Part shown: positions 7,504 to 57,803 of the stretch, piece by piece
Position numbering within the stretch: position 1 is the stretch's first letter
Layout of the letters: each line of letters opens with the position of its first letter
Assembly (NCBI GenBank): GCA_051362555.1
Contig: CM120649.1
Coordinates: 10,974,001 to 11,038,000 of the forward strand
DNA length: 64,000 nt
Direction: 5' to 3'
DNA from: Lingula anatina
Taxonomy: Eukaryota > Animalia > Brachiopoda
The notes under the pieces: model-generated
What the model was told of the DNA's origin: nothing
The model's input: only the letters and a program-made list of their open reading frames with translations
Database searches by the model: none
Program-made: the position numbers and the translations under genes

Positions 7504-10500
7504 TTATGCTCTCGCGTTCTCTATTAGGGTCTCTAAAGAATGATCGGGGTTTCTAATTGTAGCTCCCACAAGTGCCATGAGTCGACTCATGAGGACGTGG
7601 ATTGTCTCATCATCCAGCAGATCGCAAGAACCCTGGAATTTAAGTTCAATGCGCTTCGGATGATCGGACTCGATGACTTCAAGTCTGGTTTCCCTGTAGA
7701 AATCTAACAAATAATGTTCTATGACAGCTCCTCCAAATAGGGCATTGTCTTCCTCAACCACGGCATTGTGGTAGTTAATGAGGTGCTTTCCAATGTTCGC
7801 AACTTGTTCCTGTGGCATTGTATCATAAATTAAGTCCGGAGGACAGAGAGCATTTTCAACACAGCATTTCTGAATTGTGCTCTTGTTGACTCTCAGGAAC
7901 TCTCGAAATGTTTGAGAGTGGTTGTCAAAGCGAACAGGAATAGGGAGAATGTTCACGCAATTCGTCATCACCCCTTCCAATCCCAGTGCAACACGCATGT
8001 CGACACTTCCTGATATGACAAATCGCTCAATGTTTGATGCAGCATGAAGCAAAAGTTGATAAACGCTACATATGAACTGAAAAAGTGTGAATTCCTCGCT
8101 GCTACGCCATCTTAACAAATGTATCATCATATCGTCGTCTATCTGCCCCGTTACAGTAACAGACTTTCCAAAAGTGCATTGTGGTAACACTTTTTTTGAG
8201 ACTCGCACAAGAGGAACTTCTTCCGGCAGATTGTTTTCCCAAAATACTTTTAATCTTGTCTTTTCTTCTTCTGTCAGATGACGATCTATTGCATCAGCTA
8301 AGCTGGGTATTGCGCTGACTTTACCCAAATGTGTTGTCAAAGGATTGCCTGCATGGACGCTACGCAGATAAGGAATGATATTATCCTGCAGCATTATCCT
8401 CATAGAATCAACATCCACCGCTATGTGATGGAACACAAATAACACCATTGGCGGTGTAGTGTTTACGAAGGCAACACGCCAAGGCGATTCGTTGGAACTG
8501 TTGAAAGGACGTCTCATAATCTCCTCTATACTTCGTTCCATGGAATCTTCAGTTCCGTCTATGAGCTGCACCTCCGGAGTATCATCTAAAAGAAACTCTA
8601 TCTTGTCTGTTCCTACTACAGCATTTCTTCTGTATCTCATCCTGAGGACTGGGTTATTTTCTGACACTAACTTTGTAATATTTTGCCAAAGCACAATGTC
8701 AGCAGCGTATCCCTGTTCTGGCAACCTGATTTTCACAATTAAGTGGTTTGCGAGATCTTCTTTTGTTCCCTGGCTGTTGTATTTCCATCGGTGTGTGAAG
8801 GCAGGTTTTTGAATAGACCTGTTAGGAGAATGTGGACTATGTTGCTGAACTCCATCCCCAATCAACTGTTCTATGAGGTCAGCAAATGTAGTTGGTTTTT
8901 GATCACTGCTCATGAGCACTGCGGGTATAAGGGAAACTTGGAATTGGTCCCTTACTTTGCGGATAAATGACATCATATTAAGAGAGTCAAAGCCCAGGTC
9001 ATTCAAAGATTGGTTTTCATCAATCTTACCGGGGCCCATCAGAATTCTCCCCGTCGTTCGCATCACCCAGTGTTTGATGTACTGTTTTCTGTCTTCACTT
9101 GACATATTTCTGATCTGTTCTATATTCAGAGTGACCTCTGCTGAATCGGCGTCATCATTTGAGTGGAAACTTTTGCTGTTGGTCTTGAAGGGAATGTCTG
9201 CGTACATGGCCTGTACATCATTGCGTAAAAGTGCATGGAGGAAACATTCCAATATGTCATCTTCATTTAATGCATTTATACCTTCATTTCTCAGTCTTTG
9301 CCCCGTATTTGGATTCTGATTTAGTAGGCCCAAATTTAGTGCACCCCAGTTGATGGACTGTGCAGGCAGATGCTGCTGTCTTCTGTAGTGAGCAAGGCTA
9401 TCCATGAATGCATTGCCGGCTCCGTAGTTTGTCTGGCCAGGGTTTCCCAGCAGTGATGCGACTGAGGAATGCATCACAAAGTAGTCGAGAGGAAGGTTGA
9501 TGGACAACTTGTGCAAGTTCCAGGAACCCTTTATTTTGGGACCTGTCGCTCTTTCAAATGTGTCTTGATTTTGATTTACAAAGGCACCATCGGCCAAAAC
9601 AGCAGCGCCATGAAAAATGCCTTTAATTGGGATTTTGCGTTGTGCAAGTCTTTCAAAAGCACTGGAAACTGAAGTGTAATTGGAAACATCAGCTTGCTCG
9701 TGAATAACCAGAACTTGGTGTTTGATTTCAAGATCTCGTCTCTCACGTAACTGATCTGGAGTTGGAGCAGAACGAGATATTGTAGCAATGACACCAACTT
9801 TATGTTTGGCTAAACACTTAGTGATAAGCTGACCTAGGCCTGTCAGACCGCCAATTACCACATAGCAAGAATCAGAACGAAACAGTCTGTTTTTGGAGGC
9901 AAACACATCTCCAGATGGTGGTACTGAAATGCTGTAAATTGCTTGGGTTTCCATGCAGACATCCACGATTGTATCTTCAACAGTGCTATTTCCAAATTCA
10001 AAACGTGCATTTGGTATCTTATTCATTGGCACAAATTGCTTCACTTCAGATTTCAGTGAAAGTTCTGCACTGAAAGCAGACAGCCACTCCACCGTCGTTG
10101 GCACCTTTGCTTTTAACTGATGCAGTGAGAACTCGTCTCGAATTGAGAAAGTCTTCTTTTTAGCATTTGGAAAATGTCTTCGAAGAGTCATGTATTCGTT
10201 GCCCTGAATAAATTCTTCAAAGACAAGAAGGCATTGTGCTTGGCTGAATAATTTCCCCAACTGGACAATTTCGGACCGGGTGATCTCAGTCATAACCAGA
10301 ACTGTCTGACATGGCTGGAGTGCATTATTCTTGGGTATGGCATGCCTGGAAAGACTTTCTAAATCGAAATTTGCAACACGGGCCATGTCTGTCAAGACCT
10401 GAACCAAAGGCAAGGTATCATCATTGTGTACAAGTATCAGGCGCTGACTTTTAGGTGATGCATTGTTGATACACCCAACTAGAATCTGTTTGGCAAGGTG

Positions 10501-13500
10501 AACAACAGGGAATAGTGGGACGACATCCCATGGAATGAGTCTGGACGAAATCACATATTCTTTTGGCACATGGACAACTGATTCAATTGGGGAAGGGCAA
10601 CAAATGAAAACTTCATCACCATTTGAAAGATCTGATTTCCCGTTAGTATCTGCAACTTTGCCGACCAAGGAGTATGAAATGACATCATGGTCAACTGACG
10701 GGGACATATACCAAAGATGACAAGGATTATCACTTTCTGAGCTGGTTGCAGGGGCACCTTTGATCTGATTAAGGAATGCATGGTGAACGTTTACTTTAAC
10801 ATCACCTGGGTCAATGAGCTTATTGTTGCATCTGGCTTGGTGCTGGAATCGCAGTTCGCTGTAACCATTTGGATCACTGGAGACAAGTCTCACAGGACAT
10901 CCTTCTTCAGCCACATTTTTTCGATATCTGGCATAGTTGAGATCCGTTGATGCCTTGGTTGGAGATGGTTTGTACACACTTTCTTCTTTAATCACAATTT
11001 CTGGGTGGCTTGCTACAAAGGAATCAGCATCTTCAAGGTAGCACCTGAGAGTTTCTGTCTCTTCAGGGGACCCAGAATAGAGATCAACAAGACTTATTTT
11101 CTCATATGTCTCCTCTTTTAAGAAGCATCTCACCATTCCCCAAAGCTGGGCACCAAATGGGGTAAAATGAGGTGATCCTTGAAAGTCGTGAAAACTCAGG
11201 CTTTGGCATGAAACTGTAAGGACGATGACGGGGATTGTAATTTGCATATCAATGAGAATCTTCATGAGAAGACGCAAACCTGTGCATGCTCTATGACATC
11301 CCTCAAACATTTTCTTTGTGTCCATTTTGACATCGTTGGCTGTTCTTGCTCCCCAAGCGTATATGATGTAATTTGGATCTTGCAAATAATTTGGAATGTT
11401 TCTTTCCATCCAATCTCCGAGTTCCCTTTCTCCGCTACATTCTGGAAAACCTATCCCACCCTCCTTCCACTGCACTGCACTATTCTTGTCCACCAAAACC
11501 AGCCCTTTACTTTGGTGTTTTGTCTTAGGCACATCTAGCTTTGCCCTGTGCCAGGTAAGATGACCAAGGAAATTCTCTGGTGTGTTCTTGCCGATCAATT
11601 TCATCACACAGTTCCGTAATTCTGCAATGATATCCCCTTTCATCGACAAAAGGAAGCAGTTGAAATGGGCTTTACCAGAACTGTGATGCATAATTCGACA
11701 GTAAGCCTTCATGATAGGGGAGGGCTTTTGCAGCACTCTTATGCTGCCAAGACTGATTGGGATCATTTTGGTATCTTGCCCTTGGTCATGCAATGGGCCT
11801 GAGCAGAAAACCCCTGCAGTTTGCAAGAGTGAATCTAGAACTGAAGGATGGATTGAAGTGCGGTACATATCTTCAATGATGCTCTGTGGAATTGCAAGTG
11901 TTGAGATGCATTCTTCTTTGTTCACTAAAAAGTTAGTAATAAATTTCATTGTCGGTCCATAATCAAACCCAGCGTGGTGTAGCCCATCGTAAATCTGGTC
12001 AACAGGCACATTTATCGTGCATCTGCTTTCAATGCCACGGATATCTGGTATAGAACTTTTTTGTACCTCATCCTCCCTCACAATTTCCCCTGCGGCATAT
12101 GTTTTCTTATCGTCCTTGATTGCAAAATGATAGATATCTTTTCCAATTTCACATGCCTCATTAAGCTCAAACACTACATGAACATCCATCTCACTGTCAC
12201 TGCTGACAAACAATGGCTCTACAAAATTGATCTGAACCAAGAAATATTCAGAAGGCCTGTTTGAAATCTCGGATACTGCAGTGAGAGCCACGTCTGCATA
12301 AAATGCACCAGGAACCACAATTCCTGCTCCTACCATAACATGGTCATAAATAAAAGGGGTTGAACTTTTATTCATGGTTACCACGTATTCTGGCTTGGAA
12401 CCTGGCATTCTTCGCATGTACGGATGAGACGAATGGCGCATGCCATATTGCTGCTCCCTTGCAGTACGCATGTGGACGATATTTGGTTTTGGGTCAAAAT
12501 GATGTCTAGGCTTGTCTCTTAGAGCCACTGGAATAGAAACAATTTTGTTCCACATTGGATTCACCCCTCTTTCGTACATCTCAGCTAATGAAAGAAGAAG
12601 GGGCTCTGCGCTCAGTCCCTTCTTCATAGATGGAAGCACAACCACGCCATTAGCATTTTCAAACTGATCAATGAAACGTCTAGAAACTGGTCTTGGACCA
12701 ATCTCCAACACAACGTTGGTGCACTCCTCCTGAAGCGCAGCTCCAATGGCCTCATTCAACAAAACAGGTTCTCTGACGTTCTCTCTCCAGTATGAACTAG
12801 GGACATGATCTTCTGTTTTCAAACATCTACCCGTCACCGTTGAGTATAATGCAATCTTTTGCGTCCTGTGCTTGACTTTGCGAGCGGACCCCAGTGTCAT
12901 ATCCTTAAGTTCAAGCTCAATATTCTGACCAGCAGCTTCCATGTGTTGAGAATGATAGGCAATATGGACGGGCAAGTCGATGGTATTCACATCGGCATAA
13001 TTTGGTTCACTGAGGATTTGTTTCAGTGAATTTATGTACGCAGGACTACCAGACACTGTATTTGACATGGGACTATTGGTAATTGCAATATCGACTTCCC
13101 CATTTAACCTATCTTGTAAAAGAGACCTAAGTCTATCAGTAGCAAAATTCTCTACTACCATCATGTGGCCCTTTCCTGCCTTTGACGCGTATTTTGTGCG
13201 TGTACAAATTATATGTGCTGCCTCTTCCAAGGACATGACACCTGCGCAGTAGAAAGCTGCCACTTCACCCACAGACTGACCAACAACAGCATGCGGTTCA
13301 ATGCCCCAGTGGCTCCACAATGCGACGAGACAAACCTGACAAGCAAATATCACTATTGGTTCGACTTCCGGATCAGACACATCTTTCTGTTCAACTAATT
13401 TATTTAAGACAGACCAACCTGTCTTGGGGGTTAGAATCTTGTCAATCTCTGACATTTTTGCCAAGAAGACATTGTCGAACATCAGCAACTGGTGACACAT

Positions 13501-14318
13501 TCCCTTCCATGTTGTTGCAACGCCAGAGAATAAGTAAATGACACGCACCTTTTTTCTCTCAGCATGAAACTGGTGTTTTAGACGCGAGGCGAGGTTGTCT
13601 TGAAGGTTTTGAACAGAGGTAGTGACCATTGCAAGCCGTACAGGATGGTGCGTCCTCCTGCATGTCGATGTATACATTAGCCTGTCAAGATCTTGATCCG
13701 TCAAACTTTTGATGGCAATATCATCTAATACTTCATTTGCAGAGCGTCTTAGGGAATTCACCGAGTTAGCAGAGAAGCAAATCACCTTATGGGGAAGAGG
13801 GGCACCAGAACCACCCAATCCAATGGCTAAGGAAGATCCATTCTGTTTGCGAATCTCGGCATCAAATTTGTTTAGAGGGGTGCTTACGGATGAATCAGAG
13901 TCCTTGGCAACAAAAGTTAATTCACTACGGGTGCTTGGAGCTTTTGGTAATTCAAACTGCTTCACGAATGCGGCAGCATTTGTTCCTCCGAATCCAAAAG
14001 AGTTAACAAATGCCATTCGTCTTTGGTCATTTGGACAATTCCATGATGTCATTTCTGTTGAAATTTTCAAGCCAAGGTCTTCAAATGGTATTTTTGGATT
14101 GGGTTTGCCATCTTTAAAGTGTAAGGAGGGCACAAAAAGACCATGTTTCATCATGAGAAGAACTTTGATCAGCCCTGCCACTCCAGCAGCTGATTCAAGG
14201 TGACCTATGTTCGTCTTCACGGAGCCTATAGTAATACTGGGCAATTGTCTCTTACCTCGTTCGAAAAACTGGCCGATTGAATTAGCCTCTGTCATATCTC
14301 CAACCTGGGTGCCGGTCC
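7504..14318 (-). CDS. PKS-A terminal 6.8-kb exon (KS C-terminus, AT, DH, psiER, KR, ACP, C domain)
   Basis: ORF 7504..14295 extended to the ttccag acceptor at 14318; stop TAA at 7504-7506. Confidence 0.95.
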
Positions 14319-15139
14319 CTGGAATAAAATCTTTTTTTGCCAGAAGTTGTGTATGGCATGTACATGTACCTATACATGTATCTTACACTTACAAACAAAT
14401 TACCAAAAAGGGCAAGATGCCCTAGATAGGATATCAAACTTGTCCCAAACAAATGCTTGGGCTAAGTGTCCTTTGGACGTACTACCAGGTTAGTAGGTAT
14501 AAAGTAATTTTTTCTACAGTCAACAGCTTCATACTGAAATAATTTTTAACCTCCAATATTTCGATAGTAGGAAGCAAAATATTACGTGACTTGGAGATGT
14601 TGTAGCCATTCATAAAAAAAAATATAGCAGCTGTTTCTAAATCTTTTTCTGTACTTTTAGAACATCAAACGCATTTGATAAGAGAAAATAACGGATGAAT
14701 GAACCTGACTTACCATGAGCCTCGACATACTGTATATCGTCGGGGTCAATGCCTTGTTTGTCTCTTAGCATTTTGAAAAGTGCCATCTGTTGGTCTTTTG
14801 AAGGACTGGTCATCGGGTGCGCGGTGGAACCGTCTTGATTCACGACCGATGACACCAAGCCCCAAATATTGTCATTGTTCTCCAGAGCCTGGGTGAATAA
14901 AACCAAAAAGTTAAACACAATCAAGTGAAGCGAAACATAATATTCATAAGACAGTTGACAAGTTTGCTTGGCAAGACTCAGGGAGTATAGACCTAATTAT
15001 GGTAGAGCAAGTGATCGTGATTGGTTGTATGCTCTTCAGACTTAAACTAGCTTCAGACTTAAACAGATCCATAAAGACCAGGCGTAAAAATAATTGCAAA
15101 GCCAGAAAAATCAGTTTTTGATAAAGTTGTAGCCTTAAT

Positions 15140-15188
<49 letters not shown>

Positions 15189-17849
15189 GGGGGGGGGCAC
15201 ATGCCTTATCCAGTTCCAGACATGACTGTAATAATGCTGCTTGAGGAAATAAACTGAACTTGAATAAGTTATCATAACTGAACATTTCACTTACGTCTTT
15301 CAGTCGTTTTAACACTACAATTCCACACCCCTCTCCGCGGGCATATCCGTCAGCTTCGGCTGTGAAAGCCTTACATTGGCCTGTCGGGGACACCATTCCT
15401 GACTTGCTAAGTGCAATATTAGCATACGGATTTAAAAAGCAGCTAACTCCCCCGCACACCACCATGTCGCAGTCTCCTGTAAGGTATGGATTATGGTTTA
15501 ACTGTGTGGGTTTACGGGGTGGGGTCACGTGCGTACCCTCTGCACGTATGCTTTGGTATGCTACAAGGTTATGTTTACTATGGGCATACAATTTTAATTA
15601 AAATCAGAACTTTCCTTCCTTACTTACTTAAGTTTTGATTTTGCGTAAATCGGCTGCCTATTAATTTAAATATACACCACATCAATACGTTTTAACTGAA
15701 AAGTATGTATATACAACCAGTTTTAATGGGGTATACCAGCTCTGGGGGTCTGCCGCTTGATGGCCTGTAAGTCCTAAATCTCGCGTAATCTCGAACGCGG
15801 TTTCACACCATCCTTCATCACGGATATTGTAAACACGCATCGCTGAATGCAAGTTATGCCCCTATTTCACACAGACCACGAATCCCACGAATCGCCAGGA
15901 ATTGACAAATTTCAGGATTCGTGAGGATTCATGAGATTTTGCCAATTTTCTGGTCTAATTCGACACGTTCTACGATTCAGTTACGATACAGGTGCGATAG
16001 TGTTACGAATATTCGTGGGATGCGGCTGGAGTCGTGAGATTTTGCCAATTTTCTGCTCTAATTCGACACGCTCTACGATTCAGTTACGATACAGGTGCGA
16101 TAGTGTTACGAATATTCGTGGGATTCGGCTGGAATCGCACGAATATTGTCCAGAAAGTCACTACGATTTTTTGGAAGCGGGAGTTCGTGGCCGAAATTTT
16201 GAACAGCTCAAAATTTTTGCCACGAGTTCCCGATTGATCAAGAATTGCAAGAACTGACTACGAAAGAAAGAACTGACGATTATATACGAATATGTTAAGA
16301 ACTCCACGAACTGTTTACGATTCTGAATACTGATACTGAAATTTTCGATTCCTGGCGATTCGTGGGATTCGTGGTCTGTGTGAAATAGGGGCATCAAAGT
16401 TTTTGTCCCTAATTCCTGTTTGTCAAGAAGTGCAAGAACTGACTACGAATATATACGAATCTGTTAAGTACTTCACGCACTGATTACGATTCAACCACGA
16501 ATCCTGAAATTTGTCAATTCATGGCCATTCGTGGGATTATTGGTCTGTGTGAAATAGGGGCATTAACCGAACGCGTTTCCGTGACAACGAGAAGCATTTG
16601 AAAATTATTTTTTTTCTTTTTACATCGTTCATGAATAATACGGTTACTTGCTATTTTTTTAAAAATCATTTGTGCAGGTGTATGTGTGCATGAAATCTGA
16701 TAATGTTTTTATTTGCATTGGTATGCTACGCTCAAATTTGGGTTATGTCGTCGCTGTATACATACATGTATATCACTGTCAGTGGAAATAAATATGGATA
16801 TATAATTGCCGATATAAAGGAAATCTGTTTAATTGACTTTTTAAATTAATTTCTGTTGACGTATCTAAAATGAATGAATACGACGTGAAATATGCCAACA
16901 ACATAAACTTGCATACCTTTGATCAAATATGTTGTCTCATCTCCAATTTGATGTGCCTTTTTTTACAAATAATCACCTCACATGTGTAAAGTGCTGTAAA
17001 CCGTGTTTATTATTCCAGAAACCATATCAAACATTATAAATGGTATACAAATACAAAATACTGGTAAAAGTATCTATATTTTATACCATTTATTTTGATT
17101 TATAGAGTGTTCCCTCTAAAATCCGATGTTCCACTGCAGAGAAGAAACAAACAAACAAAAAAAAAAATGTTTATGATGTTGAAGACGAATACCATTTTTA
17201 ATGGCATGTGTAGCATATACAGAATTAAGAGAAAAAATATCTGCATGTGAATAATCCTACTAAAGAAAGTTTTTTTTAAAGATGCATACAAAGTCAATTT
17301 TTTTGTCATAAAAACCAAACAAATGCTAGCATATAGTTTCAAGTAGTATAACTAAGGGAATTACCAAAATGCATTGTTTAATTTACCCGAAAATGATGTT
17401 TGAATGGATTTTTCTGCTAGCATTCTATGCTGTATGTCAATGGGCCAGAAAAGTAGGTCACGAAAGTAGGTTAAATTTCCGACCAAACATTTAAAGAAAG
17501 AAGCAGTCTAAAGCTCTTTTATGGCTGATTGAGTGATCTATTCAGTTTTTCCCTTGGCATGTCAAATTTATTTGAGTCGTATAAGAAACTAGTAGAAGTG
17601 GTGTACATATGTTACTGGGAATACACATTCCACCGATGCTCGGTTCGTATGTACCTTTAAGATAAATTACCACAAAAGACACAAATTTAATCTCTAGTCT
17701 AGCTGCTTATATATTTAATGCTTTTATTTGGATCACTGACAAAAATGAATAATCCTTAATACTTCTAATGGACTTTACTATTATTATTATTTTTATTTTT
17801 ATTATTACTATTATGTACTATGGGCCGGAGGCCTTGAAAAACTGAATAA

Positions 17850-17901
<52 letters not shown>

Positions 17902-18708
17902 GAAACAACACCCTTATAATCTGGACCAACTCCTTTATGGTCTTTAGGAAGAATGGGACTATATCCCACAAAACAAAACTATAACGCTGTTGGAGGCATA
18001 CCGTGCAGCCTAGGTGAGAAAATTTTCGTGCGCAGTAAACACACGCGCTATTAGACACGTGTGTAAATTTGGTGTCTTTTGCTGGTGTCTTTTTAATTTA
18101 ATGGACATTTGTTTACCTTTGTTGAAGTCCTTATAGAAAATCAGATTTGAGGGGACACATATATAGCTTCAAACAAATATTATTAAATCACTTATAAAAT
18201 GTTATAAAATATTATAAAAGCATCTTCACCGATATTTAATTTTTTCTGTACCATAATTTTGATATGTAACTATTATCTGGAATAAAAAGCATAGTGTAAA
18301 AAAGTTTACAGATATGAGGTGATGATAAATAAATAAAAGCAAGCGGAATGGGAGTTTATTAAGATTTGGCAAGATTTAAATCCACAGGTACAGATATTTT
18401 TAGATTATGAAATCGCATAGATTAATTACGTCTCTTATAAAGGCATTTTAATTGTAATTATGAAAGAAGACCTCAAGTGTAACTTCTCAACATAATATCA
18501 AAGCAAATCAGCACAAACGAATATTTTTTACCTGAAAATTATTATTTTTACAAAATTTTGTCCCATTTGACCTTGAAATATAGATGAAAAGTCAAATCTA
18601 TGGTCATATTTTAAATCACGACACATGACTTTTGGTCCGACCTCTTTAGTAACTTTTCCATGATTCCTTCGGTTTGGGAGATATTTAGCTTTTACTATTC
18701 AAAATATA

Positions 18709-18762
<54 letters not shown>

Positions 18763-19912
18763 AGAGTACATTTTGGGAAAATGGTCCGATCAAGCCGATT
18801 GTCAAACAAGAATGCCCTCATACTATCTTTTCACCGTATGTGGAACGCCATCACTTCGCAAACGTTACAGAACTTTTAACTTCACGCATGGAGGCAACAG
18901 GTGGGTTCTCCAACCGAGAAGATACTGTGCAAAATACTAAAAGGTGGCTTTAATTTTGTACTATGGTTAGTTTATTCATTGGTTTTACAATCAGTAATTT
19001 TTTGTGAAGAGCATTCTTTTAGGAGTTGAATAAAAACATTATGGTTTATGACATTATTTTTTGTATCACTTTATGCATTACGTTAGGGTGAAACATTTTT
19101 GGTAGGGGAGTATTTCAAAGCAATTCCTACATCACATGCTATGCGCAGTTGTACAACATTGGGCGTATACAAACGGTTTCTCCTGTATGCTTTGTATAAA
19201 TCCTTGCGTATCCTTACCGTTTTGTAAAGCATTTGAAGCCGCATTTATGGCAACTAGTGACGAGGAACAGGCAGTGTCTATGGTCATAGAGGGACCTCGA
19301 AGACCAAAGACATACGAAACCCTGGCTGAGAGTATGCTACTTGACACTCCGGTCACTGAGTACTCATTTATGGCTGCAAGATCTTGCATGATGTCTTTGA
19401 AACCATCGTTCATGCTACCTGAATAGTTTGGGGAGATATAAAATGGTCAGTTAGTTTCATTTGGTCATAATACAAGTTAAAAGATCGTTTTGCAGCGGTA
19501 CCACATTCACTACTCCAGCGGCTGCCACATATACTGTAACATCGAAATATTGACTGAAAAAATTGACTTATATTTTGATTACATAATTGAACATTGTTAT
19601 ATTGCCATATGATCAGAAAATGTTACAATTTAAGTTATTGGAAAGTTCGGCGTACAGCAACTTTGGGTGTTAATAAAACGGGGGGAATGGAAAATATTGA
19701 TGTATTCAGTTACACTATACCTATGTATACGCCTGTGTTGCTATCACGGACGGTTTCAAGCGGAATCCCAGCATTTTCAAGTGCCATATAGCAGCAGTCC
19801 AGAACCCATCTCTGCTGGGGGTCCATGCGCTGTGCTTCCTCATCATTTATGCCGTACATATCATTATCAAACCACTCATAACTGGGGGAAAAGAGGATAA
19901 AAGACTTACAAA

Positions 19913-19981
<69 letters not shown>

Positions 19982-20346
19982 GAACCAATTTTACTCATAT
20001 AATATGTATGTTACAGAAATATCATTTAATTTCATTTGAGAAATTTAGCTAGATCACATATATATGTAATTATGACAACGTGTTACTGACACAAAAAGCA
20101 TAGTAATTCAGTCACTTCTTTTATTAAGTAAAGTTACTTTTTGATGACTCCAGCCCTTTTGATGCATGTCTTCCCGGTCGAGAGCCGATCAGAATCATAG
20201 TACAGGTCATTATCCCAACGATCTTTGGGGATATCCACAACGTGATTTTCGCCATTGCACAACACTTTCCAAAACTCGTCTAAGTTATCTGCGCCGGGAA
20301 AACGACACCCTACTCCGACAATGGCTAAAGCATTGAGATCCTCCAT
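7504..20346 (-). CDS. PKS-A: spliced iterative type I polyketide synthase, KS-AT-DH-psiER-KR-ACP-C (about 2580 aa)
   Basis: Hand-spliced exons 20346-20138 (acceptor at 20352), 19881-19721, 19418-19218, 15476-15295, 14888-14714 and 14318-7504. All introns are GT-AG and phases join into one 7743-nt frame. Motifs: [23 protein letters not shown] (KS Cys), [24 protein letters not shown]; AT GQSVG and AYHS; [13 protein letters not shown] and HPSVLD; KR GGLTGLG and GQTNYGAGN; ACP GFDSL; C domain HHIAVD. Confidence 0.93.
14714..14888 (-). CDS. PKS-A KS exon (ALENNDNIW...YVEAHG), 175 nt
   Basis: ccag acceptor and gtaagt donor; same size as the PKS-B exon 50514-50688. Confidence 0.92.
15139..15197. 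repeat. (GT)n microsatellite plus poly-G in a PKS-A intron
   Basis: Direct reading. Confidence 0.9.
15295..15476 (-). CDS. PKS-A KS exon ([11 protein letters not shown]...[20 protein letters not shown]), 182 nt
   Basis: acag acceptor and gtaagt donor; canonical KS DGYxRGEG motif. Confidence 0.93.
15857..16563. mobile_element. Harbinger-like MITE with internal ~103-bp tandem duplication and a duplicated right end, in a PKS-A intron
   Basis: Left TIR tgcccctatttcacacagaccacgaatccc; right TIR copies end at ~16393 and ~16563 (gtgtgaaataggggca); tta flanks. Confidence 0.75.
17849..17901. repeat. (ATT)n microsatellite
   Basis: Direct reading. Confidence 0.9.
19218..19418 (-). CDS. PKS-A KS exon with catalytic Cys ([16 protein letters not shown]), 201 nt
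   Basis: ttcag acceptor and gtaagg donor; DTACSSS motif. Confidence 0.94.
19721..19881 (-). CDS. PKS-A KS exon (YEWFD...MDPQQRWVL...TGVYIG), 161 nt
   Basis: cccag acceptor and gtatag donor; MDPQQR motif. Confidence 0.92.
19915..19976. repeat. (TA)n microsatellite next to a PKS-A splice acceptor
   Basis: Direct reading. Confidence 0.9.
20138..20346 (-). CDS. PKS-A first identified coding exon ([19 protein letters not shown]...)
   Basis: ATG at 20346, 6 nt after a ttaag acceptor; gtaact donor. An unrecognised upstream exon is possible. Confidence 0.88.
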
Positions 20347-35140: not shown

Positions 35141-35159
35141 TATACCTTCTATATGTACA

Positions 35160-43919: not shown

Positions 43920-44513
43920 TATTAGTAAGATTGATCACTCCTGTGGGTTGCAAGACAATATAGGTTGGTCGGTTTTCCTTGAAATGTTATATCCATATTA
44001 TATTATGAAAAAGCGAAAAACAGCATAACCTTTGTAAAATGGCCCGACCATACTGATTTTTGAACTTGACCTGCGCATTATGAATATTCATCAGTTCTGT
44101 AAGTTTCAAGCCAAAAGGAAAAACAGTTTTCCTTTAATCGTGTTATCGGTGAGAGTGCACGGCGACGACGACGGTGACGACAGACTCAGGTGACGGCTGT
44201 ATGTGCAGACACTGTGTCTGTACGTAAAAAGGGGCAAAAGAGAACCACTACATCTCTTTTAAATTTCTTCCTGGCTTGAAGCACAGCAATTTTAGGCCCC
44301 ATATTGTATTTTGAGTTATATGACTTGAGAATGAAAATTTTAACTTAGATAAGAATTTTACAAAGATATTCTAATATTATATCAATTAAATCAATCAAAC
44401 GCTGAAAGTAACTATGACCTTTGGTATTACAATATTTTATCTTTGGCATGAGCAGAACATTTTTACATAAAATCGAGAAGGCTCTTATTCTTGAATAAAA
44501 CAAGATGCAGCAA

Positions 44514-46421: not shown

Positions 46422-49400
46422 GTAAGTTATATTAAGATGTTTTAAAATAGACTTTTCACAAGTTTCACTAAAAGATTCATATCTATAAACAAGTAATCGG
46501 TGTGTACTCCAATACTACAAATATTGTTTGTCCGTCTTTTAGTCCTTGAATTTAGAAGCTTACAAGCGTTAGCTCTACACATAACTTTTAAGAACTTAGA
46601 ATTTGCTTACGTAATTCAAATTGTGTCTATTCAATCATGTAAAAAGTACTGAAACTTTCAAAATTCAGAGATGGACACTGATATACTATATAGCCGAGGT
46701 AATACAGAAAACAAATACTTTCAACGACCCAAGAAACACAAAATAATCCTTGCAGAAGAAAATGAACAAGTAAAGAGGATAGAACTTGACAACATGGTAG
46801 ATATTAACACATTACTTGAATAAATATAATATTTATACACTGTATATACTCTCCTTTCAACTGAGTATGAAAATGCATGATACGTTTTCAACATTACATC
46901 TCTTCTGCATGCAAGTGCTTCAGGGTATATGCTTTTTAACATGGTCGTTTCTGAGCTGTTTCGCTTTCATCACTAGTGTTGTTTTGTAAAACTTTGCTGG
47001 GTGTCATACTGGGCCGGTGAGACCGGAATTCAGGTCATCTTCTCCTATATGGACCTCGGTGTCCAGTAACTGTAGCCAGTATTTCTGTCATAAATATGGG
47101 TAAAATTTTTATTCCTGGCGGACCTGAATCCTGTTGACATAAGTCAGTGTAATGAAGGTTCACTCTTTTTATCATGTCCGACCCATTATACATGAAATAG
47201 CAACGTAAATACTACTGTCAGCAATGTATATGCATTTATTGTCGTTTAACGGTTCAACGATGACCTGTCTTAGGAGGAAGGGCATTTGAGAGTTATACAG
47301 ACGGTGAACAGATCTTGTGAGAAGGGGAAAGATCATTCGAGGTCGATCAGCGCTGCTGTACAGACACTGGTTCTCCACTTTATTCCTTATAAAATTATTT
47401 TGTATAAATACAGTTGTATGAAAAAATTGGTTTTCTTAGGTGTTGTAAAGTTATCTGATTTATATAAGTAAGAACTGTACCAGAATTGGAATTGGAATTG
47501 GACTGTGCGGGAGATCTAACTCTTATGACTGGTGACGGAGCAAAGGCTTTATGTGAGGCACATCGACTCCTTGCTAATTATTAATAAATAATGTTGATGT
47601 TTGAAGATGAAGTGGTTTTAGTCGTTGAGAGTAATTAGACGATAAATAATTTATATACGTTGAAGCATTAACGAATTAGAATATAACATTTTTAGTAAGC
47701 ACATGCAATTGCTTCGTACAATCACCAATTTGCCCACTCTTTGGCATGGTTGTTATAGGCGTTGCAATTATGTACTTGTGTGATGTATACAGAACTACGT
47801 TGGTTAACACTTCCAGAAAGTATTGATGTATACTAGATGTGATTTGCCTTCATTTTTTATGCTTCTGTCATGTTTGATTGGACTTCTTATTTTGGTACGT
47901 TGAAAATTTGTGTGATCCCTTTACGCCCCCCGCCAATACTCCCCCGCATTGATACTTCCCCGCACCGCTACTGCCCATACCGATCCAGCATACGGCTTTC
48001 CCCAAAATCGACATGCAACAATCGCTTAGTTGAAATTTTCTTCATGCGCACAGGCATTCTAATTTGGATATAAATACAAACGAACATTAGGCGAAATGAC
48101 TTACCTTTTAGAGCAAATTATGTCTGATCTACTGGTCTCTCTCCCTGTATCCGACATTGGACCAAGAACCATGGCACACTACATTCCATGTGTTGCTGTA
48201 CTGTAGCAGTTATTCTCTTGTTTACCTTTATTTAGGACTCAACGGAGGATCGAAATGCTATAGCCATTGTCGGCGTAGGGTGTCGTTTTCCCGGCGCAGA
48301 TAATTTAGACGGTTTTTGGAAAGTGTTGTGCAATGGCGAAAATCACGTGGTGGACATCCCCAAAGATCGTTGGGATAATGACCTGTACTATGATTCTGAT
48401 CGGCTCTCGACCGGGAAGACATGCATCAAAAAGGCTGGATTCATCAAAAAGTAACTTAACTTTACAAAAGCAGTGGCTTAATTGCTATGCTGTTTGTGTC
48501 AGTTACATGTTCTCATAATTATATGTACATGTGAACTAGCTGTATTTCTCAAACGAAATAATAAAAGCATAATATCTTTACGTTACTACTTTGCTTTCTC
48601 ATTCCACAAAATTGGATACGAAAGTTGCATTTTATCTTTCTAACATCATTTCATATGCAGTATTTTAATCCAAATCTTAGCCTAAATCTGGGCCCTAGAT
48701 GTCTTCAATCCTTTTTCCAGTTATGAGTGGTTTGACAATGACGTGTACGGCATAAATGATGAAGAAGCAAAACGCATGGACCCCCAGCAGAGATGGGTTC
48801 TGGACTGCTGCTATATGGCACTTGAAAATGCTGGGATTCCGCTTGAAACCGTCCGTGATAGCAACACAGGCGTATACATAGGTATAATACAAATTATATA
48901 TCACGCTTTTTTCCATCCACCTGTTTTATAAACACCCGGATGCATGGATCTTTAAAGTTGGAATTGTAATAAATCTTGCTCATATAGCATAATAACAATG
49001 TTCAATCATGTAATCAAAAATTTAAGTCAATTCTGTAGGCAATAATGTTTATCCATTGCTATAGTTTGTACATAGCCAATCCGAGCAGCCGCTGAAGTAC
49101 ATGTATGTGGAACGCTTTGAAACGTGCGTTTTGAATAATGACCAAACGAAACCAAGTAAACATTTGACATCTCCCTAAACTATTAAGGTAGCATGAACGA
49201 TGATTTCAAGGACCTCATGCAAGATCCTGAAACCATGAACGAATACTCAGTGACTGGAGCGTCAAGCAGCATCCTATCAGCCAGGGTTTCGTATGTCTTT
49301 GGCCTTCGAGGCCCCTCCATGACCATAGACACTGCCTGTTCCTCGTCACTAGTTGCCATAAATGCGGCTTCAAATGCTTTACAAAGCGGTAGGGTACATC

Positions 49401-52400
49401 CAGTATACGCACAGTGTGGGAAAATTATACATAAATGACGGAGTATATGATTACGATGTTAGATATTATGATACATGTATATGAGTATATGATATACGTA
49501 TATGACGTATGAGTTTTTTTTGAAAACGTACATATATCAGAATGGTTCATATATCCATTGTGCATTTAAATTATATTTTGTTATGAAGATTTATATACGC
49601 ACTTATGAATTGAAATTGTTTGTATACATACTTTCAACTAAAAGCTGTTTTTAAATATCCATATTTGTACGTAACTAATTTACGCATCAAATCTAATGCA
49701 AATTTGGAAAGCTTTCAAAAAGTAGATGGCCGCTTGTACCTTTACCATGTTCTACCATTCATTACACTACAACAAATACTGCATGGGAGTACACAAGAAC
49801 CTCCTCGTCCCCCAACACATACTCACACCAACACAGTTGAACCATAATATTTACATTAAAGGAGACTGCGACATGGTGTTGTGTGGAGGAGTTAGCTGCA
49901 TTTTGAACCCGTACGCTCATATTGCACTTAGCAAGTCAGGAATGGTGTCCCCGACAGGCCAATGTAAGGCGTTTACCGCCGAAGCTGACGGATATGCCCG
50001 CGGAGAGGGATGTGGGATTGTAGTGTTAAAAAGACTGAAAGACGTAAGTGAAATGTTCAGTTATAATGGCATATCCAGTTTCAGTATATATCATCAAGCA
50101 GCATTATAAAAGTCGGCTGTGGCACAGGATAAAGCATGTGCCCCCTCCCCCAATAAAGTTTGGCGCTAAACGGATCTGGTATTTTCTGTCTTTGAATTCT
50201 TTTTATGTCTGGTATTTATAGACATTGTTTCATATTACCCAAAAAATTATATTCAAACAAATTTTTGCTTGCTTTTTGTGTTGTATGTATTTGGGGCAGA
50301 TAAGAAGTTAATTCACATAAGAAGTCCAAATTCAACCAAATATTTGAAAGAGTACATTTATGGCTGATTGAGTGATTTTTTCCCTTGGCATGTCTTCTTT
50401 ATTTGAGTTACATCGGAAACTATAATGGAAGTGGTTTATATGCGTTTTTGGGAATCCACACTCCAACGACATTCGGTTCAGGGGTGTTATGTCATTTTGT
50501 GTATTTTCACCAGGCTCTGGAGAACAATGACAATATTTGGGCCCTGGTGTCATCGGTCGTGAATCAAGACGGTTCCACCGCGCACCCGATGACCAGCCCC
50601 TCAAAAGATCAACAAATGGCATTATTCAGAAAGTTAAAAGACAAACAAAGCATTGACCCCGATGATGTACAGTATGTTGAGGCTCATGGTAAGTGGTGTT
50701 CATTCATCCCGCTTATTAAAAAACGGCCACTGTTATATCTTTTATTGACTATACTTGATGCTCTCAAAACGATGATAACATTTTTAAATGGATACTTGAT
50801 TTTTTCTGAACGGCTACACCACCACAATTCACTTAAAATTTTGCTTCCTACGCACCTGTTAGTACGTTCAAAGGACCCCATCCACTTGCATATGTTTGGG
50901 ATTTTATATATACGTAATCTTCCGCTTCTTGGTGATCAATATGTATGTAAATCCAAAGCTACATGTTATATACATCGCCAGGTAAACACATTTTTTTCAG
51001 GAACAGGCACCCAGGTTGGAGATTTCACCGAGGCTAATTCAATAGGCCAGTTTTTTGAACGAGGTAAGAGACAATTGCCCAGTATAACTATAGGCTCCGT
51101 GAAGACAAACATAGGTCACCTTGAATCAGCTGCTGGAGTGGCAGGGCTGATCAAAGTTCTTCTCATGATGAAACATGGTCTTTTTGTCCCCTCCTTACAC
51201 TTCAAAGATGGCAAACCCAATCCAAAAATACCATTTAAAGACCTTGGCTTGAGAGTTTCAACAGAAATGACATCATGGAATTTCCCAAATGACCAAAGAC
51301 GAATGGCATTTGTTAACTCTTTTGGATTCGGAGGAACAAATGCTGCCGCTCTCGTGAAGCAATTTGAATTACCTGAAGCACCCAGCACCTGTAATGAATT
51401 AGCTTTTGTTGCCAAGGACTCTGATCCACCCCTAAATACCCCTGGTACCGAGGTTTGCAAACAAAATGGATCTTCGTCAGCCATTGGATTAGGTATCACA
51501 GGCGCCTCAATTCCCCATAAGGTGATTTGCATCTCTGCCAACTCGGTGGGTTCCCTGAGACGCTCTGCAAATGAAATCATAGATGATATTACCAACAAAT
51601 GCTTGACAGATCAGGACCTTGACATGCTTATGTATACGTCTACATGCAGAAGGACGCACCATCGTGTTCGGCTCGCAACAGTCACCACTTCTGTTAAAGA
51701 CCTTCGGGACAAGCTCTCATCATGCTTAAAACGACAGTTTCATGTTGAAAGAAAGAAGGTGCGGGTCATATACTTATTCTCTGGCGTTGCAACAACATGG
51801 AAGGGAATGTGTCACCAGCTGCTGATGTTCGACAAAGTCTTTTCAGCAAAAATGTCAGAGATTGACAAGATTCTAACCCCCAAGACAGGTTGGTCTGTCT
51901 TGAATAAATTAGTTGATCAGGAAGATGTGTCTGATCCAGAAGTCGAACCAATAGTGATATTTGCTTGTCAGGTTTGTCTCGTCGCATTGTGGCGCCACTG
52001 GGGCATTGAACCGCATGCTGTTGTTGGTCAGTCTGTTGGTGAAGTGGCAGCTTTCTACTGCGCAGGTGTCATGTCCTTGGAAGAGGCAGCACATATAATT
52101 TGCACACGCACAAAACATGTGTCAAAAGCGGGAAAAGGTCAAATGATGGTAGTAGAGAATTTTGCTACTGAAAAACTTAAGCCTCTTTTACAAAATAAGT
52201 TCAATGGGGCAGTCGAAATTTCCATTTTCAATAGTCTCATGTCAAATACAGTGTCTGGTAGTCCCGAGCATATAAGAACTTTGAAAGAAATTCTCGGGGA
52301 ACAACATTATACTGCTGTGAATACCATCGACTTGCCTGTTCATATTGCCTATCATTCTCAACACATGGAAGCTGCTGGCCAAAACATTGCGTTTGAACTT

Positions 52401-55400
52401 AAGGATATGACATTGGGAACGGCTCACAAAGACATGCGCAATACGCAAAATATTGCATTATACTCAACGGTAACGGGAAGATGTTTGGAAACAGATGATC
52501 ACGTCCCTAGTTCATACTGGAGAGAGAATGTCAGATGCCCTGTTTTGATGAGTGAGGCCATTGGAGCTGCGCTTCAGGAGGAATGCACCAACGTTGTGTT
52601 GGAGATTGGTCCAAGACCAGTTTTTGGACGTTTCATTGATCAGTTTGAAAATGCTAATGGCGTTGTTGTGCTTCAATCTATGAAGAAGGGACTGAGTGCA
52701 GAGCCCCTTCTTCTTTCATTAGCTGAGATGTACGAAAAAGGGGTGAATCCATTGTGGAACAAAATCGTTTCTATTCCAGTGGCTTTACGACAAAAGCCTA
52801 GACATCATTTTGACTCAAAAGCAAATATCATCCACACGCGTACTGCAAGGGAGCGTCAATATGGAATGCACCACTCTTCCCACCCGTACATAAGACGAAT
52901 GCCAGGCCCCTCTCCAGAATACGTGGCAACCATAAATAAAAAATCAACCCCTTTTATTTATGACCATGTTATGGTAGGAGCCGGAATTGTGGTTCCTGCC
53001 GCATTTTATGTAGACGTGGCTCTCACTGCAGTATCCGAGCTCTCAAACAGGCCCCCTGAATTTTTCTTGCTTCAGATTAATTTTTTGGAACCATTGTTTG
53101 TCAGCCGTGACAGTGAGCTGGATGTTCATGTAGTTTTTGAGTTTGATGAGGCACATAAAATAGGAAAAGATGTTTATCCTGTTGCAATCAAGGACAATAA
53201 GAAAACATTTGCTGAAGGAAAAATTGTTAGGAAAGATGACATACCGAAAAGGACCATGCTTGATATATGTGATATTGAAAGCAGATGCACAACAAATTTG
53301 CCTGTTGACCAGATTTACGATGGACTGCATTACGCTGGGTTTCATTATGGATCATCAATGAAATGTATCACTGACTTTTTAGTGGCCAGAGATGAATGCA
53401 TCTCAGCATTTGAAATCCCCCAGCATATCATTGAAGATATGTACCGCACTTCAATCCACCCTTCAGTTCTAGATTCAGTCATGCAAACTGTAGGGGTGCT
53501 CTGCTCAGATCCATTGAATGACCAAAGACAAGTAACCAAAATAATCCCAGTTAGCATTGGCAGCATATCAGTGCTTCAAAAGCCCTCCACAACCATGAAA
53601 GCCTACTGTCGAATGATGTGCCACAGATTGGGTAAAGCCCATTTCAACTGCTCCCTTTTGTCAGTGAATGGGGATGTCATTGCTGAATTGCGGAACTGTG
53701 TGATGAAATTGTTTGGCAAGAACACACCAGAGAATTTCCTTGGTCACCTTACCTGGGACAAGGTAAATTCAGACAGGCCTTATGCAAAACACCAGAGTAA
53801 AGGCATAGTTTTTATCGACAGGAACAGTGCAGTGGCGTGGATGGAAGGTGGGCTAAGTTTTCCAGAATGCAGTGAAGAGGAGGAGCTCAAAAACTGGATG
53901 GAAAGAAACCTTTCAAGTCGTCTGCAACATTCAAAATACATAGTGTATGCTTGGGGAGCAAAAACAACCAGCGATGACGAAATGGACACACAGGAAATGT
54001 TTGAGGGATGTCAGAGAGCATGCACAGGTTTGCGTCTTCTCATGAAGATTCTCATTGAAATGCAAATTACGATCCCCGTCATCGTCCTTACAGTTTCATG
54101 CCAAAGCATCAGTTTCCAAGATTTTCAGGGAACACCTCATTTTAGCCCATTTGGTGCCCAGCTATGGGGAATGGTGAGATGCTTCTTAAAAGAGGAGACA
54201 TATGAAAAGATAAGTCTCGTTGATCTCTTTTCTGGATCCCCTGTTGAGACAGAAACACTCAGGTGCTACCTCGAAGATCCTGATTCCTTCGTAGAAAACC
54301 ACCCTGAAATTGTGATTAAAGAAGACAGTGTGTACAAACCATCTCTAACCAAGGCAATGACGGATCTCAACTATGCCAGATATCGAAAAAATGTGGCTGA
54401 AGAAGGATGTCCTGTGAGACTTGTCTCCAGTGATCCAAATGGTTACAGTGAACTGCGATTCCAGCACCAAGCCAGATGCAACAATGAGCCCATTGACCCA
54501 GGTGATGTTAAAGTGGACGTTCATCATGCATTCCTTCATCAGATCAAAGGTACCCCTGCAACCATCTCAGAATATGATAATCCTTGTCATCTTCGGTATA
54601 TGTCCCAGTCAGGCGACCATGGCGTCATTTCATACACTTTGGTTGGTAAAGTTGCAGATGACAACAGGAAATCAGATCTTTCGAATGGTGATGAGATTTT
54701 CACTTGTTGTCTTTCCCCAGTTGAGTCCTTTGTCCATGTGCCAAAAGAATGTGTGGTTTTGTCCAGACTCATTCCACGGGATGTGGTCCCAATATTCCCT
54801 GTTGTCCACCTTGCCAAACAGATTTTAGATTGGTGTATCAAACATGCGTTCCCTGGGAGACAGTGTCTGATACTGGTACACAATGATGATAATTCACCTT
54901 TGGTTCAGGTCTTGACAGACATGGCCCGTGTTGCAAAATTTAATATAGAAAGCCTGTCCAAACATGCCTTATCCAAGAGCGTCGGCCTGCAGTCATGTCA
55001 GACAGTTCTGGTTATGACTGAGATCACCCGGTCTGAAATTGTCCAGTTAGGGAAAGTATTCAGCCAAGCACAATGTCTTCTATTCTTTGAAGAATTTATT
55101 CAGAGCAACAAATACCGGGCTCTTCAAAGATCTTTTCCAAATGCCCAGAAGAAGAGATTCTCAATTTATGATCAGTTGTTAATGCATCAGTTAAGGGCAA
55201 AGGTACCAATGACAGTGGAGTGGCTTTGTACTTACAGTGCAGACCTAGCACTGAACTACGAACTGAAGCAATTTGTGCTGACGAATCAGTCACCAAATAT
55301 GCGTTTTGAATTTGGAAATGAAACTGTGGCAGATACAGTCATGGATGTCTGCATGGAAACCCAATCAATTTACAGCATTTCAACTACACAATCTGGAGAT

Positions 55401-57803
55401 GTGTTTGCCCCAAAGAACAGACTGTTTCGTTCTGATTCCTGTTATGTGGTTATTGGTGGCCTGACGGGCCTAGGTCGGCTTATCACTGAGTGTTTAGCCA
55501 AACACAAAGCTGGTGTCATTGCTACAATATCTCGTTCTGTTCCATCTCCAGATCAGTTACGTGAGAGACAAGATCTCGAAATCAAACACCATGTTACAAT
55601 TGTCCACGAGCAAGCTGATGTTTCCAATTACACTTCAATTTCCAGTGCTTTTGAAAGACTTGCACAACGTGGAATCCCAATAAAAGGCATTTTTCATGGC
55701 GCTGCTGTTTTGGCTGATGGAGCCTGTTTAGATCAAAATCAAGATTCATTTGGAAGATCAACAGGTCCCAAAATCAAGGGTTCATGGAACTTGCACAAGT
55801 TGTCCATAAACCTTCCTCTCGACTACTTTGTAATGCATTCCTCAGTCACATCACTGCTGGGAAACCCTGGCCAGACAAACTACGGAGCCGGCAATGCGTT
55901 CATGGACAGCCTTGCTCACTATAGAAGACAGTGCCATCTGCCTGCACAGGCCATCAACTGGGGCGCTCTGAACTTGGGTCTTCTAAAACAGAACCCAAAT
56001 ACAGAACAGAGACTAAGAAAAGAAGGGATAAATCCATTAAATGAAGAAGACATATTGGAATGTTTTCTCCATGCACTTCTGTGCAATGATGTACAGGCCA
56101 TGTACGCAGATATTCCCTTCAAGATCAACAACAAAAGTACCTCCTCAACTGATGACACTGATTCAGCAGAGGACACTCTGAATATGGAGCAGATCAGAGA
56201 TTTACCAAGTGGAGACAGAAAACAGTACATCAAACACTGGGTGATGCGAACGGCAGGAACTATTCTGATGGCTCCCAATGAGGTGGATGAAAACCAATCT
56301 TTGAATGATTTGGGTTTTGACTCTCTTAATATGATGTCATTCATTCGCAATGTAAGGGACCAATTCCAAGTTTCTCTTACACCCGCAATGGTGATGAACA
56401 GTGATCAAAAACCAACTACATTTGCTGACCTCATTGAAAGATTGATTGGAGTTGGATTTCAACGACATAGTCCACATTCGCCTGACAGCCGCATCCAAAA
56501 GCCAGCCTTCACACACCAATCTATATTCAACATTCAGGGAACAAAAGAAGACCTCGCAAACCACATTATTGTAGAAATCAGGTTGCCAGAACCGAGTCTT
56601 GCTGCTGACATTGTGCTTTGGCAAAATATGACAAGGATGTTGTCAGAAAAAAACCCCACCCTTAGGATGAGATACAGAAGAAGTGGTGGGCTAAAAACAG
56701 ACAATATAGAGTTTCTTTTGGATGATCCTCCAGAGGTGCAGCGCATAGACGGAACGGAAGACTCAATGAAGCAAAGTATAAAGGATATTAAGAGGTGTGC
56801 TTTCGACAGTTCCAAAGAATCCCCTTGGCGTGTTGCCTTCGTAAACACCACACCGCCAGTTGTGTTACTTGTGTTTCACCACATAGCGGTAGATGTGGAT
56901 TCTATGAGGATAATGTTCCAAGAAAATGTTCTTCCTTATCTGCGTAATGCCTCGGCAGGCATTCCTTTGGCAAAACATTTGGGTAAAATCAGCGCAATAC
57001 CTAGCTTAGCTGATGCCTTAGATCGCCATCTGACCGAAGAAGAAAAGGCTAGATTAAAATCATTTTGGAGAAATATTCTGCCTAAAAGAGTACCTCTGGT
57101 GCAAGTCTCAAACAAAGCAGTACCTGAATGCACTTTTGGCAAGTCTCTAACTGTAGAGGGGCAGATAGGCGGCGATTTGATCGAGGATTTATTCAGATGG
57201 CGTGATAGCGATGAATTCACCCCTTTTCAGTTCATATGTAGCATTTATCAACTTTTACTTCATGCTACATCACAAATTGGAGGGTTTGTCATATCCGCCA
57301 GTGTCAACATGCGTGTCGCACTAGGAATGGAAGGAGTGATGACGAATTGTGAGAACATTCTGCCTATTCCAGTTCACTTTGAGAGCCATTCTCAAACATT
57401 CAGGGAGTTTCTGAAAACCAACAAGAACATTATTCGTGAATGCTGTGTCGAAAATGCCATTTGTCCTCCGGAGCTAATATATGATGAAATGCCCCAAGAA
57501 CAAGTTGCAAACATTGGAAAGCATCTCATTATCTACCACAGAGCAGTGATTGAGGAAGACGAGACCCATTTAGGAGGAGCTGAAATAAAGCATCATTTGT
57601 TTAAATTCTACAGGGAAACCAAACTTGAAGTCATCGAGTCTGATCATCCGAAGGGCCTTGAACTTAAATTCCAAGGTTCTTGCGATTTGCTGGATGGTGA
57701 GACGATCCGCGTCCTCATGAGGCGACTCATGGCACTAGTGGAAGCTACAATTAGAAACCCCGATCATACTATAGAGACCCTAATAGAGAACGCGAGAGCA
57801 TAA
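46386..57803 (+). CDS. PKS-B: spliced iterative type I polyketide synthase, KS-AT-DH-psiER-KR-ACP-C (about 2590 aa), paralog of PKS-A
   Basis: Hand-spliced exons 46386-46421 (putative), 48236-48450, 48721-48881, 49188-49388, 49862-50043, 50514-50688 and 51001-57803. Introns are GT-AG and join into a 7773-nt frame. Same catalytic motifs as PKS-A ([52 protein letters not shown]). Confidence 0.92.
48236..48450 (+). CDS. PKS-B KS exon ([21 protein letters not shown]...), 215 nt
   Basis: tttag acceptor and gtaact donor; homologous to 20352-20138. Confidence 0.92.
48721..48881 (+). CDS. PKS-B KS exon (MDPQQR), 161 nt
   Basis: ttccag acceptor and gtataa donor. Confidence 0.92.
49188..49388 (+). 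CDS. PKS-B KS exon with catalytic Cys (DTACSSS), 201 nt
   Basis: ttaag acceptor and gtaggg donor. Confidence 0.93.
49862..50043 (+). CDS. PKS-B KS exon (ADGYARGEG), 182 nt
   Basis: aaag acceptor and gtaagt donor. Confidence 0.92.
50514..50688 (+). CDS. PKS-B KS exon (...YVEAHG), 175 nt
   Basis: ccag acceptor and gtaagt donor. Confidence 0.92.
51001..57803 (+). CDS. PKS-B terminal 6.8-kb exon (KS C-terminus, AT, DH, psiER, KR, ACP, C domain)
   Basis: tttttttcag acceptor ending at 51000; uninterrupted frame to TAA at 57803; collinear with the PKS-A terminal exon. Confidence 0.95.

Follow-up and report, generated by a model that had tools for sequence, protein, structure and literature searches.

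The window, by which we mean the whole stretch of 64 000 nucleotides of Lingula anatina DNA that was analysed, is AT-rich and carries two long ORFs, which are the last exons of two head-to-head polyketide synthase (PKS) genes, PKS-A and PKS-B. With exon models guided by RefSeq homologues, PKS-B (46671..57803, + strand) has seven coding exons (46671-46796, 48236-48450, 48721-48881, 49188-49388, 49862-50043, 50514-50688 and 51001-57803) and encodes 2620 aa with the Pfam layout KS-AT-DH-(~550 aa without an assigned domain)-KR-ACP-C. PKS-A (7504..20346, − strand) has six (20346-20138, 19881-19721, 19418-19218, 15476-15295, 14888-14714 and 14318-7504) and encodes 2580 aa with the same layout. GT-AG boundaries were found at 11 of 11 introns (six in PKS-B, five in PKS-A), the reading frame is open, and all of the introns lie within or 5′ of the KS, with last exons of 6.8 kb in both genes. 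Judged by their sequences, PKS-A and PKS-B are intron-containing animal iterative type I PKSs of the form KS-AT-DH-KR-ACP-C. A bacterial contaminant was ruled out by the GT-AG introns, the match to RefSeq and a tree that follows host groups.

Both proteins are already recorded as uncharacterised RefSeq models. PKS-A is identical to Lingula anatina LOC106179436 (P0412) at 2556 of 2580 aa (99 %), and PKS-B is 96–100 % identical to Lingula LOC106151792 (P0003) over the first ~1800 aa and 80–95 % thereafter. Another Lingula protein, P0004, is 86–98 % like PKS-A, reaches 100 % over KR-ACP and ends after the N-lobe of the C domain. These shifts of identity along the proteins suggest that the Lingula copies are mosaics (P0003 with respect to PKS-B, P0004 with respect to PKS-A), arising from recombination or gene conversion among at least 3–4 copies, or from assembly errors. 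PKS-B begins with an additional coding exon of 42 aa (46671-46796, + strand), which P0003 shares but the PKS-A model, with its start at 20346, lacks.

A direct tandem duplication of ~5 kb (29424-34217 and 35245-39983, 91–98 % identical in aligned pieces) lies between the PKS genes, and broken reading frames at 34188-35167 (− strand) are what we take, by eye, to be a resemblance to LINE-type reverse transcriptase. Copies of a dispersed repeat (3257-4860, 42332-43921 and 61752-62675) are 77–90 % identical and contain fragments that resemble Tc1/mariner transposase by eye only. Just upstream of PKS-A is an inverted repeat of ~770 bp (21270-22037 and 23564-24308, 81 % identical).

The KS of PKS-B (48236..51400, + strand) is spread over exons 2-7 and has an intact catalytic Cys (DTACSSS) and both His (EAHGTGT and GHLES). 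It is followed on the same strand by the AT (51768..52700; GQSVG and IAYHS; Pfam Acyl_transf_1, 148.5 bits), the DH (52920..53729; His in a 12-residue motif, Asp in HPSVLD; Pfam PKS_DH_N and PS-DH), an interval of ~560 aa without recognisable MT or ER (53760..55439), the KR (55440..55970; GGLTGLG, catalytic Tyr in NYGAGN; Pfam KR, 169 bits) and the ACP (56238..56405; GFDSL at 56313-56327; Pfam PP-binding, 37.1 bits). A motif check of PKS-A and PKS-B found the catalytic motifs of KS, AT, DH, KR and ACP all intact. The DH-KR interval matched no Pfam family at E≤0.01 and gave weak PDB matches (E≥0.29), and we infer that it is probably a degenerate pseudo-MT/pseudo-ER. Pfam and local searches found no adenylation (AMP-binding), thioesterase (TE) or ER family in either PKS protein. 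No NRPS gene was detected elsewhere in the window, as tblastn with six NRPS or hybrid proteins gave 79 matches, none of them outside PKS-A and PKS-B.

In four RNA runs, 2, 2, 63 and 8 reads were placed on PKS-B and 46, 12, 0 and 0 on PKS-A, with no PKS-A read at ≥99 % likeness in any run. In run X7, 62 of the 63 PKS-B reads were 95–99 % alike and the C domain was covered at about one-fold depth. As 16 of the 40 listed read variants on PKS-B match PKS-A, the reads stem from a B-like allele or a further paralogue. A loose read end from the PKS-A mapping matches the PKS-B 3′ UTR with one mismatch, indicating that a B-like transcript continues past the stop. Reads were few, and no splice joint reached the listing threshold in the four runs.

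The terminal condensation domain

The C domain of PKS-B (56502..57800, + strand) comprises 433 aa and both CAT lobes, as identified by Pfam, AlphaFold2, Foldseek and VIA, and is 74 % identical to that of PKS-A (7507..8805, − strand). The sequence-only reading had proposed a terminal NRPS-type condensation domain without an adenylation domain, to be checked by an HMM search and a structural model, and both lines of evidence bore it out. When compared in isolation with Pfam PF00668 (Condensation; cut-off 30.6), the PKS-B tail scored 58.6 bits (E 6e-16) and the PKS-A tail 75.7 bits (E 3.8e-21), and the match is not due to chance. An AlphaFold model built from two sequences was discarded (pLDDT 34.9), and the model from a 49-row alignment had a pLDDT of 87.2 and a pTM of 0.89. 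Foldseek matched this predicted structure to the NRPS C domain of LgrA over residues 1-433 (E 2.5e-25), and VIA gave a Z of 38.5 for the same domain (rmsd 2.4 Å, 401 aligned residues), compared with 36.0 for HtmB2-CT, 34.2 for MokA CON and 33.5 for the X domain. The best PDB matches by sequence were the teicoplanin X domain (E 2e-4) and a second HR-motif NRPS chain (E 0.02). On the predicted fold, the tail is a true NRPS-type C domain, a two-lobed CAT pseudo-dimer.

The canonical active-site motif of C domains is HHxxxDG. In PKS-B, this site reads HHIAVDV (56877..56897, + strand), with HHIAVD at 56877-56894 followed by Val at 56895-56897. All of the motifs quoted in the sequence-only reading were recovered at their positions. 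In PKS-B (+ strand) they are NPTLRMRY (56652-56675, including the conserved Arg of the 'LR' motif at 56664-56666), PWRVAFV (56823-56843), a 15-residue motif (57216-57260), NCENILPI (57345-57368), IIYHRAVI (57528-57551) and HHLFKFYRE (57591-57617), with the stop at 57801-57803. In PKS-A (− strand) they are HHIAVD (8413-8430), INYHNAVV (7756-7779) and HYLLDFYRE (7690-7716). Retention of His-His and Asp was confirmed in both genes, and the three full-length Lingula C domains (those of PKS-A, PKS-B and P0003) each carry H126, H127, D131 and R55, as well as Ser134. These three domains are only 74–84 % alike, yet the second His and the Asp are constant. Two features set the C domains of PKS-A and PKS-B apart from canonical LCL and DCL domains: Val rather than Gly follows the Asp, and the stop comes directly after the C domain, with no downstream A-PCP module.

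Comparison of the C domains of PKS-A and PKS-B gave a dN/dS of 0.42 (bootstrap 0.31–0.58), which indicates that the domain is maintained by purifying selection. Together with the open frame, this value led to rejection of a pseudogene or dead tail. An earlier suggestion held that the paralogues differ mainly in the C-terminal half of the domain and that this hints at different acceptors. The two lobes, however, diverge equally (N-lobe, 73 % identity, dN/dS 0.43; C-lobe, 75 %, dN/dS 0.42) and no more than the DH (74 %, dN/dS 0.46), and the motifs cited for the contrast occur in mixed form in another Lingula copy, the third, which combines IIYHRSVI with HYLLDFYRE. The argument for different acceptors therefore fails, and acceptor-specific divergence of the C-lobe was rejected.

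Animal relatives and origin of the fusion

Relatives were sought with the region from the end of the KS to the DH as query among proteins of 830–2643 aa. The best 120 of 661 matches comprised two Lingula proteins, 18 excluded because their names or coverage marked them as bacterial, and 100 of animal type, of which 42 had a precomputed Pfam C domain and seven more had tails of >250 aa. The 42 were aligned with four of these seven (P0307, with an unalignable tail, P0328, with a short tail, and the partial P0396 were omitted), giving a motif survey of 49 rows, three from Lingula and 46 others. There are thus at least 46 further C-bearing homologues, the named ones coming from chitons, bivalves and gastropods. 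The 16 of 46 that are named are all molluscs (chiton, scallops, Pinctada, Mytilus, Potamilus, Haliotis, Patella, Gigantopelta, Aplysia and Physella), and the other 30 fall within the mollusc clade of the core tree described below. Four mollusc PKSs with a full C-like tail (P0303, P0324, P0335 and P0410) were missed by the precomputed Pfam annotation and bear the RefSeq names of mycobacterial or fungal synthases; since the annotation misses such tails, the PKS-C layout is undercounted. A homologue search based on the KS was dominated by multi-KS bacterial proteins and was uninformative. HMMER with a two-sequence C profile returned mostly multi-C NRPSs, and the animal rows identified among the 150 listed were P0004 and P0217, a scarcity that reflects whole-protein scores favouring repeated domains and is no evidence that animal relatives are absent.

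The active-site Asp is present in all 49 animal C domains and the Gly in none, its place being taken by Leu (21), Met (11), Val (6), Ile (5), Phe (4) or another residue (2). The replacement of Gly by Val had been remarked upon from the Lingula sequence; the Val is there, but the loss of Gly extends to 49 of 49 animal PKS C domains and is not an oddity of these copies. A similar qualification applies to the statement that the C domain replaces the thioesterase. The domain is indeed terminal and no TE was found, but the wording is loose because vertebrate and amphioxus relatives stop within ~40 residues of the estimated end of the ACP, with neither TE nor C.

Both His were kept only in the three Lingula rows. 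The 46 other C domains retain them in a near-complementary manner, with the first His only in 27, the second, catalytic His only in nine, neither in ten and both in none. The second His persists in a scallop/Pinctada clade and in Patella, and several relatives have H-R or H-K motifs like those of LovB or X domains (Haliotis HRLAFDL, Aplysia HKAVFDF). Among 44 NRPS C domains used for comparison, a set found by likeness to Lingula, HH was present in 44 and Gly in 35.

A C-lobe signature characterizes the animal family, with His341 at 57522-57524 and Glu372-Thr373 at 57615-57620 in the C domain of PKS-B (+ strand). In 47 non-Lingula animal rows these positions held His (36) or Asn (11), Glu (45) and Thr (42), and the same three residues occurred in 2, 11 and 5 %, respectively, of the 44 NRPS C domains. 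In the animal PKS C domains, these three positions vary less than the catalytic His. His341/Glu372 was rejected as a second catalytic site, as Glu372 aligns with an Asp that is common in NRPS C domains (24 of 44).

This domain order has been described before. Passages of Lin et al. 2024 (PMC10764717) describe a mollusc PKS clade that includes layouts with and without a C domain and has few, N-terminal introns. An example from the same source (supplementary file 5, 'clade6') is KS-AT-DH-KR-PP-Condensation and, judged by eye, lacks both His. The KS-AT-DH-KR-ACP-C layout is already published there for molluscs with the C domain uncharacterised, no functional or motif analysis of it being seen in the available portions of that paper. 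In 11 of its 18 supplementary files, Lingula appears only as FAS. The Lingula PKSs resemble the mollusc PKS-C clade of Lin et al. 2024 in having KS-AT-DH-KR-ACP-C, no A, TE or ER, and N-terminal introns, and differ in belonging to a brachiopod and in keeping both His, which 0 of 46 relatives do. Vertebrate PKSs share the core and the wider clade, but end at the ACP without a C domain. These include medaka OlPKS for otoliths, given as KS-AT-DH-KR-ACP in an excerpt of PMC4604110, and a C-less budgerigar PKS of the same family, which makes polyenes according to passages of PMC10764717. The literature searched, in which subscription journals were largely absent, yielded neither a characterised animal PKS ending in a C domain nor a paper on the PKSs of Lingula.

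A phylogenetic tree of the core (87 rows, 625 columns, FastTree), covering neither the sequences that Lin et al. 2024 themselves obtained nor FAS or AFPK, paired Lingula with the mollusc clade as its sister (local support 0.93); both fall within an animal clade (0.97), and the deuterostomes lie outside the pair. A profile built without Lingula scored the Lingula C domains at 191–206 bits, and the best NRPS domain among 746 matches at 147. In two quick trees of the C domain (94 and 44 rows), a branch with SH-aLRT 100 separated the animal domains from those of NRPSs, with Lingula branching first. The NRPS outgroup for these trees was picked by likeness to Lingula, and they hold no fungal PKS-C, starter or FAA C domains. 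For the 44-row tree, seven long-branch rows were removed and the remainder thinned, and the tool still flagged long branches meeting where Lingula joins the NRPS group. The Lingula C domains share three of seven mollusc-diagnostic and six of 22 NRPS-diagnostic columns, which fits an early branch. The fusion of the C domain is probably older than the brachiopod-mollusc split, with Lingula retaining an ancestral HH motif. A single fusion before that split is consistent with the profile and the trees, a fit that falls short of proof.

Function of the condensation domain

Our preferred reading, held with about equal belief and doubt, is that the C domain would release the finished chain from the ACP onto a free small nucleophile, an amine or an alcohol, to give a polyketide amide or ester. 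It is the retention of both active-site His in the Lingula copies that points towards joining of the chain to such an acceptor. Cycles of KS, AT, KR and DH without an ER would produce an unsaturated, polyene-like chain, as in the C-less bird relative, and the ACP would present the acyl thioester at the donor side of the C domain. His127 would then orient or activate a nucleophile that arrives by diffusion, and the bulky residue replacing the Gly would be consistent with an acceptor that is not PCP-borne.

Release as an amide or ester is supported by the intact fold and motif, by selection, by the absence of A and TE from the genes and the window, and, by analogy, by three precedents. The fungal PKS-C TwmB forms N-acyl amides (wortmanamides) with beta-alanine or 5-aminopentanoate via its C domain (passages of PMC11153888, citing Hai and Tang 2018). 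Like the Lingula PKSs, TwmB is iterative, has a terminal C domain and no A domain, and the proposed mechanism is the same; it is fungal, however, and amide formation is demonstrated for TwmB but only proposed for Lingula. C domains of gut-bacterial FAA enzymes take free amines and keep the second His in >99 % and the Asp, with Gly in only 17 %; their motif, as in OaaC, is (D/H)HxxxD, usually with Ser or Ala after the Asp (sections of PMC13310621). They share with Lingula an acyl-ACP donor, the kept second His and Asp and the replaced Gly, and differ in being free-standing and in having Ser or Ala where Lingula has Val. In the third precedent, a streptothricin C domain with HQxxxDM forms amides, and the second His is not always essential (part of PMC11546977).

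The relatives argue in another direction. Because 37 of 46 lack the catalytic His, the case for amide release is weakened for the family as a whole, and because relatives that share the core function without a C domain, the domain is not needed for release as such; chain offloading is given as unknown for most TE-less AFPKs, related animal synthases, in passages of PMC10764717. A role like that of the CON domains of LovB and ClaE or of the glycopeptide X domain is accordingly the main alternative, although somewhat improbable: the domain would carry out no amide chemistry but would bind the ACP-tethered chain or a partner enzyme and so govern the length, cyclisation or tailoring of the chain, and the Lingula His would be ancestral leftovers. 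In LovB-like ClaE, mutagenesis found the Asp essential and the His and Arg dispensable, and no amide is formed (excerpts of PMC13492342). The retention of the Asp in 46 of 46 relatives, but of the second His in only nine, would match this pattern and speak against amide or ester release. The LovB CON is required for the product and not responsible for release (portion of PMC6260248). In the relatives, the fold and the Asp persist where the second His has been lost. The H-R and H-K motifs of Haliotis and Aplysia, the X domain and HR-motif chain as top PDB sequence matches, and the better conservation of His341, Glu372 and Thr373 than of the catalytic His also favour such a role. Against it, all three full-length Lingula copies have HH and not HR, the second His persists in the scallop/Pinctada clade and Patella, and the X domain and MokA CON score below catalytic C domains in the structural comparison. 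The CON domains of LovB, MokA and ClaE (HRxxxDG) share with Lingula an iterative PKS, a terminal C-fold domain and the invariant Asp, whereas HHIAVDV has a second His and no Gly, and the window showed neither a trans-ER nor a TE partner. Nor does HHIAVDV fit the glycopeptide X motif, given as HRxxxDD in part of PMC11546977.

It is quite unlikely that the domain acts as a TE substitute in the manner of fungal terminal CT domains, hydrolysing the chain off the enzyme or closing it intramolecularly to a lactone or lactam. The terminal position, the absence of TE, the Z to HtmB2-CT and the retained Ser134 agree with this, as fungal CT domains, which likewise have no Gly at this site (HxxxDxxS), set their products free by cyclisation (passages of PMC11546977). 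A polyene chain made without an ER or an amino-acid unit would, however, have few internal nucleophiles, and C-less relatives release without a C domain. Condensation in trans, joining the chain to an aminoacyl or acyl group on a separate carrier or NRPS-like protein encoded elsewhere, is very improbable: elongating C domains such as that of LgrA are the nearest in fold and animal NRPS-like genes occur in several phyla (passages of PMC10531068, which do not mention Lingula), but no A-T gene lies within the window and none of the 49 animal domains has the Gly that typifies PCP-dependent domains.

A wider scenario combines amide or ester release in Lingula with the single fusion, and we regard it as speculative and fairly unlikely. 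One C fusion before the brachiopod-mollusc split would have been kept with its ancestral His-His, among the animals sampled, by Lingula alone, which would make polyene amides or esters. In mollusc lineages, one His or both would have disappeared separately, and the domain would have taken on other chemistry centred on the family-specific His341/Glu372/Thr373. The family would then be a candidate source of the mollusc shell polyenes, which are assigned as unmethylated in part of bioRxiv 2023.05.17.541181; this link is drawn from mollusc passages, and no literature on shell polyenes in Lingula was found.

Among the copies found, a complete His-His-Asp site occurs in those of Lingula alone, which are the most canonical members of the family. 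A search for polyketide amides or esters made by animals would therefore best begin with these enzymes, and the natural series of domains with both His, the first only, the second only or neither may serve as a panel for the question of the role of His in C domains.
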